Assembly: GCF_039971195.1 (NCBI RefSeq) | Contig: NZ_JBDWPJ010000034.1 | Coordinates: 1,887 to 65,886 of the forward strand | Length of the DNA stretch: 64,000 nt | Reading direction: 5' to 3' | DNA from: Pseudophaeobacter sp. | Lineage (GTDB): Bacteria > Pseudomonadota > Alphaproteobacteria > Rhodobacterales > Rhodobacteraceae | Part shown: in pieces, positions 4,509 through 23,770 of the stretch | Layout: each line of letters opens with the position of its first letter | Numbering within the stretch: the stretch's first letter is position 1 | The notes under the pieces: generated by a model | The model's input: only the letters and a program-made list of their open reading frames with translations | Database searches by the model: none | Told to the model about the DNA's origin: nothing | Translations under genes and position numbers: made by a program

Positions 4509-6005
4509 ATGCTGCCTCCCGTAAGTGTTATACGGGTTCAAAAGATGCAGCTAAATTCATCCCAATTGGAGCCGTCTCAGGACGGTGAGACGCCGCAGGA
4601 CGACAATGACGCCATGGCTCAGGCGGTGAACCCGCAATTGAACCAGTTGACCCAGGTCTCCTCCAAGCTCGGCTACGAGATTGTCGACATCGCCGGCTTT
4701 CTGGATCTGATGGACCAAAAATCCCAGGGACAGCTCTCGTCTCTGCAGGACCTCACCCGCGAAGCGGAACGAGTCATCTCCTCCAATGATCAGGTGCTCG
4801 ACACGATTCAAACGGTTTCGGTCACCACCGAAGAAACCCTCCAATCTGTTCAAACTTCCGTGAAATTTGTCCGCGACAATAGTGGGCGCAGTAAGGAGGT
4901 TGCCGAATGGGTCAACGATCTGGAAGAGCGCACCGACCAGATTGGTGAGACCGTAGACGCGGTCCGCAAGAACAACGAGATGATCACCAGCATTGCAGCC
5001 CAGGTGAACATCCTGGCGATCAATGCCAAGATCGAAGCCAGCCGTGCAGGCGATGCAGGCCGGGGCTTTGCCGTGGTGGCCGAGGCGATTAATGACCTGT
5101 CCAAACGCACCCAGACTGCGGCCAAGGAGATTGGCGACAACATCGAGAACCTCTCCAATTGGGTCACGCTGCTGCATGACGAAACCGTTGATGTGTCCCG
5201 GTCAGCGGAGAAAATCCTCGGCCAGGCCCGTGATACCGATACCTCGCTGCTCAGCATCGAAGAGAAGGCGACGGATGTGAACACTCAGACCTCGCGCATT
5301 CTGAAAGAAGCCGCGCAGGTGAAGGAAGCGGTCAGCAGTTTTGCCCCCAACATCAATCGCATCAGCAAATCCGTGCAAGAGACCACCACCGGCATTCACG
5401 ACACCCACACCCGGGTTGAAAACCTCATTGTCTCTTCCGAACAGCTGGTTCAGGGCACCGTTGCCTTGGGCGGGCAATCCGATGACAAACGCTTCATCTC
5501 TTATGCCAAGCAGGTCAGCAAACAGGTCAGCGCAATTTTCGAAGAGGCTTTGCGCACTGGAAAAATTGCCTCCAGCGCCCTGTTTGACAAAACCTACCGG
5601 CCCATTCCCGGCACCAACCCGGAACAGTTCACCACTGGCTTTTTGCCATTGACCGACACCATGCTGCCGCCCATCCTGGAAGCGGCTTTGGAATTTGATC
5701 CGCGCGTGGCCTTTTGTGCTGCGGTTGATACCAATGGGTACCTGCCAACCCACAACAAGATGTTCTCGCATCCGCAGAGCTCTGATCCGGATTGGAACAT
5801 GGGAAATTGCCGCAACAGGCGGATTTTTAACGACCGGGTTGGCCTTAAGGCTGGGCGCAACTCCGAAGCCTTCCTGATGCAGGTCTATCGTCGCGACATG
5901 GGCGGTGGCAATTTTGTCATGATGAAAGATCTCTCGGTGCCAATCTTTGTCGAGTCCCGCCATTGGGGCGGCATCCGCATGGGGCTTAAAACGACCGGTT
6001 CCTAA
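4509..6005 (+). CDS. Soluble methyl-accepting chemotaxis protein with C-terminal extra domain (true start may be 4546 or later)
   Basis: MCP hairpin tip [37 protein letters not shown]; no transmembrane segment. Confidence 0.88.
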
Positions 6006-6029
6006 TCCCCCTCCCCCCATGCCCTGCGG

Positions 6030-6073
6030 CCTGAAAAAAAAGCCGCCACACATCCGGGCAGATGGTGGCGGCA
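6030..6073 (-). terminator. Rho-independent terminator for a minus-strand transcript
   Basis: Minus strand gccgccaccatctgcccggatgtgtggcggc followed by a run of T. Confidence 0.75.
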
Positions 6074-6282
6074 GGAAATGCGTCTTCATGCGGGGATCAG
6101 ATGCGGCTTCCGGTTGATAGGCGCAACCGGCAGGATTTGGTACAGGCGGGACTCCTGTTCACATCAAGGATGTGGGCGCATCTGTCATAAAGACAGCAGG
6201 CAGTAATTCAGCAGTGTTTCAGGTCCTTACATGGGGATGGGCAGGTTGAGTTTCAAGAAACCCGGAATACAGGAAGCCAGGG

Positions 6283-6405
6283 TCACAAGAAGCCAGGCAG
6301 ATGCAGCGCAACAACCAGCATGACAATCAGCGCTGCAGCGCCCAGGGCATCCTGCAGCAGGGTGGATTGAGTATTGCTCAGCGTCGTCTTCAATTGCGTC
6401 ATCAT
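6283..6405 (-). CDS. Unannotated 40-aa small membrane protein MMTQLKTTLSNTQSTLLQDALGAAALIVMLVVALHLPGFL
   Basis: Hand-translated; GGAGAG RBS just upstream of ATG; one hydrophobic C-terminal helix; below the 60-aa cutoff of the ORF track. Confidence 0.72.
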   Translation of the reverse strand: MMTQLKTTLSNTQSTLLQDALGAAALIVMLVVALHLPGFL

Positions 6406-6508
6406 TGTCTTGCTCTCCGCTACTCTCTGTCAGGGTTCAGGCTTTCGCCGCGCCGCTCTTTGTCGGCCTTGTTGCTTATTTGTTCTCACTTTACGTCAGC
6501 TCTGTAAA

Positions 6509-6544
6509 GAACTTTTTGAGAACATTTGCGAACTTTATTGGAAC
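6509..6544 (-). promoter_or_regulatory. Two tandem alphaproteobacterial LexA (SOS) boxes
   Basis: GAAC-TTTTTGA-GAAC (6509-6523) and GAAC-TTTATTG-GAAC (6530-6544), both matching GTTC-N7-GTTC on the minus strand; degenerate third copy GTTG-N7-GTTC at 6471-6485. Confidence 0.82.
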
Positions 6545-6573
6545 CTGAACGAGGGTACGCGGAGAAGAACAGG

Positions 6574-10934
<4,361 letters not shown>

Positions 10935-22987: not shown

Positions 22988-23770
22988 CTAGCCCAGAAAG
23001 GTGTAGAGAAACAGGAACATGGCGGCAGCACCCAACATGCCGTCAAAGCGGTCGAGCAAGCCACCGTGACCAGGAATCAAAGCGCTGGAATCCTTGACGC
23101 CTGTCTGGCGTTTCAGCGCGCTTTCGGCGATATCGCCGGCCTGGCTCGCCATGGAAACGGCAACGGAAGCCAGCACCAAGCCCAGCCCCATATTCATGTA
23201 AAGCGCAAAACCCGCTCCAATGAGGGCGGCAGCTACCCAACCAGCGGAGGTACCTGACCAGGTTTTCTTTGGGCTGATGCGGGGCCAGAACTTGGGACCG
23301 CCAAAGGTTTTGCCAGCAAAATAGCCCGCAACATCGGTGGCAATCACCACCACGATCAGCCACAGCAACCAGCTGGCACCCAGCCCATTGCGCATCCAGA
23401 TAAAACTGTAGCCCGCAAGCACGATCCACAGGGCAAAGAGCGCAAACCGGTTCCTGGCTTGTTCAGCAACCAGCACCCAGCCCAGAACCACCGGCAGCAC
23501 AAGCAGCGCCAAACCCAGCCCCATGGGCAGGAACCCCGCCACCAGAACCACCAAACAGGTCACTACGCCAAGCTGCACCGCAGTTCCATAGCGGCGCGGC
23601 GCCAGCATCTGGGCAAGTTCCCAAGCCATACCACCACAGCACAGGGCAATGACAAGGTTGAACGCAACACCGCCGAGCCAGATCGCTAGGATGCCCACCG
23701 CCGCCATAACTAGGGCGCTAATCAACCGAGGCATAAGATCGCCCCAACGTCCTGTTTGCCCCTGGGTCAT
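22988..23770 (-). CDS. cdsA: Phosphatidate cytidylyltransferase
   Basis: DVAGYFAG, ISPKKTWSG, GDIAESALKR, KDSSALIPGHGGLLDRFD; start at 23770 overlaps the uppS stop (ATGA). Confidence 0.95.
   Translation of the reverse strand: MTQGQTGRWGDLMPRLISALVMAAVGILAIWLGGVAFNLVIALCCGGMAWELAQMLAPRRYGTAVQLGVVTCLVVLVAGFLPMGLGLALLVLPVVLGWVLVAEQARNRFALFALWIVLAGYSFIWMRNGLGASWLLWLIVVVIATDVAGYFAGKTFGGPKFWPRISPKKTWSGTSAGWVAAALIGAGFALYMNMGLGLVLASVAVSMASQAGDIAESALKRQTGVKDSSALIPGHGGLLDRFDGMLGAAAMFLFLYTFLG

Follow-up and report, generated by a model that had tools for sequence, protein, structure and literature searches.

A conserved small gene with SOS-type operator boxes and a structured RNA tail directly downstream of recG in Rhodobacteraceae

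Introduction

Cell-division inhibitors induced in the SOS (DNA damage) response differ from one bacterial lineage to another: (i) SulA is confined to gammaproteobacteria; (ii) SidA, described from Caulobacter crescentus, is an SOS-induced inner-membrane protein of 29 residues that acts on FtsW, FtsI and FtsN; and (iii) YneA, SosA, ChiZ and DivS are SOS-induced membrane division inhibitors of Gram-positive bacteria (PMC4211646), with a link between YneA and FtsW (PMC13396833). For Rhodobacterales, the order of the model genera Cereibacter and Rhodobacter and of roseobacters abundant in the sea, the literature search turned up no description of an SOS-induced division inhibitor or small membrane effector. 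The present report deals with a candidate of this kind, a 40-codon gene located directly after recG in a 64,000-nt stretch (hereafter, the window; all coordinates of the unit follow its numbering) of the 4.17-Mb genome of Pseudophaeobacter sp., contig NZ_JBDWPJ010000034.1. The evidence comprises a gene and an SOS-type operator, both conserved, together with the prediction of a membrane helix and a structured RNA tail that is likewise conserved; from these we infer repression of the unit by LexA and its induction by DNA damage.

The resemblance to SidA lies in the very small size of an alphaproteobacterial inner-membrane protein (here, a predicted one) and in the LexA-type box of its promoter. 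By contrast, the protein encoded by the small gene has 40 residues and a polar N-terminal half of 19 residues, and its gene follows recG and is extended by a structured RNA tail. YneA, SosA, ChiZ and DivS are likewise small membrane proteins, unrelated to one another, through which each lineage stalls septum synthesis under LexA control. They are longer and have extracytoplasmic domains, whereas the protein considered here ends with its predicted membrane helix.

The pairs TisB/IstR-1 and DinQ/AgrB of Escherichia coli share with this locus a single-helix membrane peptide (predicted, in our case) with LexA-type boxes and long structured untranslated parts (for DinQ, PMC3567139). They differ in that here no antisense or complementary small RNA (sRNA) locus was found in the genome, there are no paralogues and no patchiness, and conservation is strong at one locus. 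As for the operator, the Barbe laboratory reportedly described multi-box SOS operators at recA and lexA of Rhodobacter sphaeroides, which also have several repeats of the GTTC-N7-GTTC type around one promoter; at the present locus, however, the two conserved boxes are mutually inverted and separated by about 23 bp, with CAAC and not GAAC at the end of the downstream one in nearly all cases. Finally, SorX of R. sphaeroides is a regulatory RNA derived from a 3′ untranslated region (3′ UTR). RNAs of this class resemble the tail of the small gene in being structured, in exposing pyrimidine-rich motifs, in lying directly after a coding region and in sharing its terminator; the tail, on the other hand, has no Rfam family.

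In general terms, the unit appears to be a family-wide version of the known theme of the SOS-controlled small membrane protein, to which an RNA domain has been added, and it was not found described in the literature searched. It provides a concrete and easily tested candidate (a coding sequence of 123 nt, about nine genera in ten, a defined operator); it adds an RNA structure with strong covariation and without an Rfam family; and it constitutes a compact natural example for the action of the direct-repeat LexA of alphaproteobacteria on multi-box operators.

The Small Gene and Its Product

6283-6405, minus strand: the 40-codon gene MMTQLKTTLSNTQSTLLQDALGAAALIVMLVVALHLPGFL, with its ATG at 6403-6405 and the Shine-Dalgarno sequence GGAGAG at 6413-6418; studied through homologues, a hidden Markov model (HMM), synonymous and nonsynonymous differences, hydropathy and AlphaFold2

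A protein search returned 18 homologues of the 40-residue peptide, with identities of 59-93%. The HMM built from these homologues was then applied to 301 genera of Rhodobacteraceae, represented by one genome each, and found a match in 249 of them, nearly always one per genome. A broader HMM search over 401 genomes sampled across the class gave matches confined to Rhodobacteraceae and in no other family, a result that speaks against homology to SidA, which itself was not aligned directly. Among 16 genera without an HMM match but with a located recG, 10 possess a divergent small open reading frame (ORF) of like design directly after recG, with a basic N-terminal part, the motif (E/D)-D-x-x-G, a hydrophobic run and L-P-G, and with the same operator layout (box-TTGACx-box). 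Matches and divergent copies together give an estimated occupancy near nine genera in ten. The 3′ end of recG was found upstream of the small ORF in all 30 loci compared (from 30 genera) and in 78 of 80 named roseobacters, and recG is described here as its invariant upstream neighbour. No paralogue of the unit was found in the genome, Pfam and NCBIfam returned no family for the peptide, and the literature search yielded no paper on the small gene or its box sequences.

The pattern of variation is that of a protein-coding sequence. All 30 loci have an ATG start 6-9 nt after a Shine-Dalgarno sequence of the GGAG type and a length of 39-45 codons. Among 24 copies of forty codons, the mean proportion of synonymous differences (pS) was 0.65, that is, saturated, that of nonsynonymous differences (pN) was 0.27, and the median ratio of nonsynonymous to synonymous substitutions (dN/dS) was 0.23. 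The entropy at the first, second and third codon positions amounted to 0.85, 0.50 and 1.35, respectively, the third being the most variable. At the C-terminus, H-L-P-G is encoded with all the Pro codons and many of the Leu codons, the third positions of Leu, Pro and Gly being free; in consequence, the motif is kept at the protein level, and the idea that it is retained as an RNA motif (CUGCCUG) was rejected. That the ORF at 6283-6405 is a real gene can be regarded as practically certain.

Regarding the product, Kyte-Doolittle hydropathy reaches about 2.0-2.3 in 19-residue windows within residues 15-40, and no Lys or Arg residue lies outside the N-terminal half. In each of the 13 sequences where the motif could be placed, 21 or 22 residues separate the invariant Asp of D-x-x-G from the C-terminus. 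AlphaFold2, run on the family alignment, returned one helix spanning residues 2-39 with a mean predicted local distance difference test score (pLDDT) of 79.5. These predictions indicate a tail-anchored single-pass membrane protein with its N-terminus inside and almost without a periplasmic tail. The family shares the motif T-L-L-Q-D-A-x-G, and the invariant or nearly invariant positions (D19, G22, L26, L30, L34 and P37) suggest a specific helix-helix partner.

Several of these points had been anticipated in an earlier note on this DNA, which proposed an SOS-controlled membrane peptide downstream of recG. The 40-codon ORF and its GGAGAG ribosome-binding site were recovered at the above positions, the Pfam domains confirmed recG as the upstream gene, the polar N-terminal half and the single hydrophobic helix agree with the charge distribution, the hydropathy and the AlphaFold2 model, and the purifying selection whose absence the note had regarded as fatal is evident from the excess of pS over pN. 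Its description of the ORF as unannotated must be qualified, since some NCBI genomes (Pseudophaeobacter, Phaeobacter, Aquicoccus and Parasedimentitalea) list the homologues as "hypothetical protein."

Operator and Promoter

6509-6570, minus strand: array of six same-strand GTTC tetramers (6567-6570, 6547-6550, 6541-6544, 6530-6533, 6520-6523 and 6509-6512), read from the sequence
6530-6544, minus strand: upstream perfect LexA-type box GTTCCAATAAAGTTC; 14.8 bits, rank 37 genome-wide, lineage-specific
6509-6523, minus strand: ORF-proximal perfect LexA-type box (box 1) GTTCTCAAAAAGTTC; 15.7 bits, rank 28, conserved family-wide
6503-6508, minus strand: TTTACA, a -35-like hexamer abutting box 1, conserved as TTTACA, TTGACT, TTGATC or TTGCTT; its role as a -35 element is putative
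6488-6493, minus strand: TAAAGT, a -10-like hexamer of the pattern nAAnAT, conserved in the alignment and located 9 nt after TTTACA
6471-6485, minus strand: inverted LexA-type element GAACAAATAAGCAAC (as read on the ORF strand) with one core mismatch; 16.3 bits, rank 25, inside the invariant block TGAGAACAAA
6406-6470, minus strand: 5′ leader containing the Shine-Dalgarno sequence (6413-6418); its length and sequence vary among genera

The motif GTTC-N7-GTTC is that of LexA in alphaproteobacteria (PMC3323433). In the window it occurs three times, against 1.44 expected occurrences, and two of the three are found here, 21 bp apart. The GTTC array begins just past the recG stop codon, and its six same-strand tetramers in 62 bp represent the highest density in the whole genome, tied with position C21:678. 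Directly after recG, the module [GTTC-N7-GTTC]-TTTACA-N15-[GAGAAC-N7-CAAC] is conserved; in anchored alignments it takes the fuller form GTTC-N6-[GTTCT(C/T)A(A/T)AAAGTTC]-TTTACA-N9-nAAnAT-GAGAACAAA-N4-CAAC-AAA.

The core of box 1 is perfect in 30 of 30 close genera and in 18 of 20 more distant ones (48 of 50 altogether), the two exceptions having one mismatch each. Of 80 named roseobacters, among them Pseudophaeobacter, Phaeobacter, Leisingera, Ruegeria, Tritonibacter, Sedimentitalea and Sulfitobacter, 79 likewise have a perfect core. As for the inverted element, GAAC-N7-[C/G]AAC, it was found in 79 of these named genomes, nearly always with CAAC at its end, and is among the two best-conserved parts of the module. 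These two conserved boxes have opposite orientations and are about 23 bp apart. At the upstream site, most relatives carry GTTC-N6-GTTC, and two perfect N7 boxes occur in just 5 of the 80 named roseobacters.

LexA-type boxes flank TTTACA and nAAnAT. The former was marked as the -35 element in view of the divergent genera, which show TTGACA, TTGACT or TTGACC right after the first box. A single sigma-70 promoter formed by TTTACA and nAAnAT was rejected, the spacer between them being 9 nt, and a simple promoter scan gave one weak site, inside the leader (6433-6404). Under either reading of the promoter, a predicted core element would be covered by a box.

The same type of box occurs at SOS genes of this genome, whose products (recA, lexA, RuvC, ImuB, DnaE2, etc.) were identified by eye from their translations. 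The genome contains 83 matches to GTTC-N7-GTTC, among them matches just upstream of recA, lexA, an imuA-like gene, radA, uvrD, uvrA and xthA. A matrix trained on seven sites (recA, lexA, uvrA, uvrD, radA, xthA and imuA), from which this locus was excluded, also recovers the sites before ruvC, imuB and dnaE2, and ranks the three sites of the small gene 25th, 28th and 37th among about 8 million positions, all within 75 bp. Triple tetramer arrays with N7 and then N6 spacing were found at lexA, at xthA and at the small gene, and nowhere else in the genome. Few differences separate the third element, TGAGAACAAATAAGCAACA, from the imuA operator of the same genome, TGAGAACAAATAGCGAACA. A GTTC-N7-GTTC site lies in the promoter region of the small gene and is conserved upstream of its orthologues, and on these sequence data the gene is probably under LexA control.

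The earlier note had rightly taken GTTC-N7-GTTC for a LexA site type, in line with the boxes at the recA, lexA and imuA operators, and had correctly placed the two perfect boxes, which are on the minus strand; the conservation of ORF and boxes together, which it had proposed to look for, extends across the group in the proportions given above. The third box, which it called degenerate, does exist, with one mismatch, although it is inverted relative to the other two and highly conserved. The distance of about 100 bp to the ORF has to be corrected to 118 nt (from the 5′ end of box 1 to the ATG). The qualification "tightly repressed" is not supported: it was based on the two perfect boxes, yet one of these is lineage-specific and the matrix scores are mid-range.

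A remark in the literature may have its origin in this same operator. In some alphaproteobacteria recG seems to be LexA-regulated (PMC3323433); as a conjecture, this could reflect the operator of the small gene credited to the neighbouring gene.

Other SOS operators of the genome (recA, lexA and xthA) are multi-box as well. The recA operator (C61:28871-28907) consists of GTTC-N7-GGTC followed, 9 bp on, by an inverted GAAC-N7-GAAC; the lexA operator (C217:17190-17215) of TTGACA-N17-TAGAAC with GAAC-N7-GAAC-N6-CAAC; and the xthA operator (C20:11634-11659) of GTTC-N7-GTTC-N6-GTTC. In addition, LexA-type sites of 20-23 bits stand beside non-classical genes at C155:17911, C211:4577, C182:12571, C64:1333, C151:5514, C156:33029 and C151:25079. 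These genes include, as judged by eye, those of an ArsR-family regulator, a 93-residue ORF, a cytochrome P450-like protein and a protein with a B12-binding domain, and are possible extra members of the LexA regulon. The third GTTC-N7-GTTC of the window, GTTCCTGGCTTGTTC (23450-23464, plus strand), falls outside the top 45 sites on the SOS matrix.

Structured RNA Tail

6208-6282, minus strand: spacer between the stop codon and the RNA core, delimited from alignments
6072-6207, minus strand: conserved structured RNA core, with a closing stem (P1) around hairpins and exposed UGCCU-type motifs; covariance model R1
6033-6072, minus strand: intrinsic terminator GCCGCCAC...GTGGCGGC followed by T9, identified by terminator scan, reading and fold

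A structured RNA, which was not part of the earlier note's finding, follows the ORF. A strong terminator is present after the ORF in 29 of the 30 loci, 160-241 nt past the stop codon in 27 of these, and the sequence between stop codon and terminator is conserved, with the motifs UUUCUGCCUGCG, CCUGUCCCA, CUGCCUGUCC and UGCCUCA. RNAalifold on plain MAFFT alignments of the tail recovered the terminator alone; a subset alignment and a covariance model (R1, built from 12 sequences) were required for the remaining structure. With strict filters, R1 matched 38 of 151 genera, each genome exactly once. With laxer filters, it matched 37 of 53 loci, and its match in this window (6072-6207) was the sole one in the genome. 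Wherever coordinates were compared, the RNA core was found immediately 3′ of the ORF.

In the model-fitted alignment, 89.6% of the cells pair and 17 of the 19 modelled pairs show compensatory changes. Cells changed on both sides numbered 99, against 24 in shuffles and 8-30 when the partners were slid, a margin that is large even though the alignment leans towards the model. A third hairpin, outside the model, has stems that vary (GGGGC/GCCCC, GGACC/GGTCC and CCGGTTG/CAACCGG, among others) under a kept YGCCU(C) loop. The RNA of the window itself folds into the same architecture (-67.8 kcal/mol; z-score -5.67). An Rfam cmscan of positions 5500-7000 at E<=1 returned no family, the sole hit being anti-hemB with 17 bits versus a gathering score of 49.5.

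In this window the RNA tail starts unusually far from the ORF: the spacer measures 75 nt, versus a gap of none to about 40 nt in 26 other aligned genera, and in most genera the RNA begins a few nucleotides past the stop codon, with G-UUUCUGCC. Whole-message folds had suggested that the ribosome-binding site is sequestered by the 3′ end of the ORF or by the RNA tail. This was rejected by a sliding duplex test, in which just 4 of 27 loci had their best window near the stop codon (mean z-score -0.4) and no consistent partner emerged. For the tail, a role as a stabiliser of the message or as an sRNA is conceivable.

Base-pairing sRNAs typically possess repeated single-stranded motifs rich in C and U, together with a terminator. 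The presence of both in the tail favours a reading in which the RNA is the main product, namely an SOS-controlled regulatory RNA, released from the 3′ end or of dual function, whose UGCCU-type motifs would pair with purine-rich ribosome-binding regions, the peptide being secondary or unrelated. In the same direction point the covariation, the single copy directly after the ORF where compared, a distribution of the core as wide as the model could detect, and the start of the RNA so close to the stop codon in most genera. Such a reading nevertheless appears distinctly unlikely: the purifying selection on the ORF at the protein level is clear and argues that the peptide itself is functional; no targets, processing site or separate promoter were identified; and the motifs are weaker in this very window, where the loop of the first hairpin does not contain CUGUCCC.

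Proposed Explanation

The segment 6033-6570 (minus strand) is best read as one transcription unit, specific to Rhodobacteraceae, of the SOS (LexA) regulon. As long as the DNA is undamaged, LexA dimers would occupy direct-repeat boxes on either side of the core promoter, one of them abutting the -35-like TTTACA and the inverted one lying over the -10/start region, and would thereby block transcription initiation and, possibly, also read-through from recG. After DNA damage, LexA self-cleavage stimulated by RecA would free the promoter. The resulting transcript, of about 440 nt, would comprise two parts: (i) the message for the 40-residue protein, a single helix with a basic, cytoplasmic N-terminal half and a tail-anchored membrane segment formed by the last 22 residues, from the Asp of D-x-x-G onwards; and (ii) a structured 3′ domain that exposes UGCCU-type motifs, has the terminator at its end and would serve as a stabiliser of the message or be released as a regulatory sRNA. 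By analogy with SidA in Caulobacter, the protein might bind a membrane partner and so delay cell division during repair. Between recG and the small gene, neither the terminator/promoter scan nor the reading of the strand revealed a terminator; the small gene may therefore also be transcribed by read-through from a ligA-recG operon. Taken as a whole (SOS unit, membrane peptide, RNA tail and SidA-like brake), this explanation is held with a confidence slightly better than even.

A number of observations weigh against it. The boxes of the locus score 15-16 bits, in the middle of the range, whereas the canonical operators reach 21-27 bits; box 1 has AAGTTC as its second half-site, versus the canonical TTGTTC or ATGTTC. 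The alignment contains no TATAAT-like hexamer 16-18 nt past TTTACA, and the mere 9 nt from TTTACA to nAAnAT make the assignment of the core promoter ambiguous. The spacer of box 1 (TCAAAAA or TCATAAA) is conserved to a much higher degree than the LexA spacers at other sites, beyond what LexA binding alone explains, so that a factor besides LexA may read the DNA of box 1. With regard to function, no link of the small gene to division genes was found, and the peptide has no sequence similarity to the characterised inhibitors; hence, the division role is argued by analogy alone.

The mid-range scores and the unusually conserved spacer can also be taken to mean that LexA does not act here at all, the GTTC repeats being read by another direct-repeat binder (spacing of 10-11 bp) or reflecting mere promoter architecture, and the peptide being a housekeeping small subunit of a membrane complex, expressed constitutively or through ligA-recG read-through. 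The mixed N6/N7 spacings do resemble arrays of response regulators, the near-CtrA box described below adjoins the third element in 41 of 110 loci, and no terminator separates recG from the ORF as far as seen. Set against this are the N7/N6 arrays shared with lexA and xthA alone in the genome, a third element that is nearly the imuA operator, and a GTTC-N7-GTTC core that stays perfect in 48 of 50 genera while its flanks drift, all of which make the absence of LexA control improbable.

The sequence TCAA-N7-TTAA(C) is one mismatch from the CtrA box TTAA-N7-TTAAC. In 41 of 110 orthologous loci (L004-L009, L016, L019, L028 and others) it lies about 30-60 nt before the ATG and overlaps the third LexA-type element at its end; it is absent from 6406-6470 of the window. 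On this evidence, a cell-cycle (CtrA) input may exist in lineages of the Ruegeria/Leisingera type.

Returning to the SOS unit with a membrane peptide and an RNA tail, its sequence features make the small gene a strong candidate for a damage-induced membrane effector of Rhodobacteraceae. A SidA-like division brake is the best guess as to what the protein does, but it is a tentative one, drawn by analogy, and the balance tilts against it. A bolder version would have two coupled effectors on one SOS transcript, a tail-anchored division staller of 40 residues and a 3′-released RNA whose repeated UGCCU motifs re-programme translation. This seems unlikely; if true, it would represent a module without a described counterpart in any bacterium, in which protein and RNA form a DNA-damage checkpoint physically linked to recG.

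The earlier note had coupled SidA with TisB as models. The SidA half of that analogy remains architectural; the other half, in which the product would be a type I toxin of the TisB/DinQ kind (an SOS-induced peptide that enters the inner membrane, lowers the proton-motive force and brings about dormancy, its message being kept inert by structured RNA until processed), fared worse. A small hydrophobic single-helix peptide behind LexA-type boxes, on a message with a long and highly structured untranslated part, does fit such a toxin, and DinQ is a LexA-controlled, toxic, single-transmembrane peptide with antisense sRNAs (PMC3567139). Still, this reading is very improbable, and weaker than the SidA-like one, given that (i) type I toxins have a patchy and often multi-copy distribution, whereas this gene is vertically inherited, is nearly always single-copy and has no paralogue, and its position behind recG is fixed in the loci examined; (ii) no antisense or complementary antitoxin RNA locus was found in the genome, where the best complementarity to the unit is a chance-level 18 nt (E 0.027) and where the space upstream is taken by recG; (iii) the saturated synonymous sites and the variable leader argue against a constrained overlapping antisense RNA; (iv) no conserved partner sequesters the ribosome-binding site; and (v) the polar motif T-L-L-Q-D-A-x-G suggests a specific partner over generic membrane damage.

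Neighbouring Genes

6574-8664, minus strand: recG, with the Pfam domains DEAD, Helicase_C, RecG_wedge and RecG_dom3_C and the stop codon TAG at 6574-6576
8661-10919, minus strand: ligA, which overlaps recG by 4 bp (8661-8664)
4509-6005, plus strand: gene for a protein of 498 residues

On the other side of the unit, the gene at 4509-6005 encodes a protein with one Pfam match, to a methyl-accepting chemotaxis signalling domain, at residues 157-287; its C-terminal part, of about 200 residues, has no family match. This gene converges on the terminator of the small gene, and the same neighbour is found in just 5 of the 30 genera.

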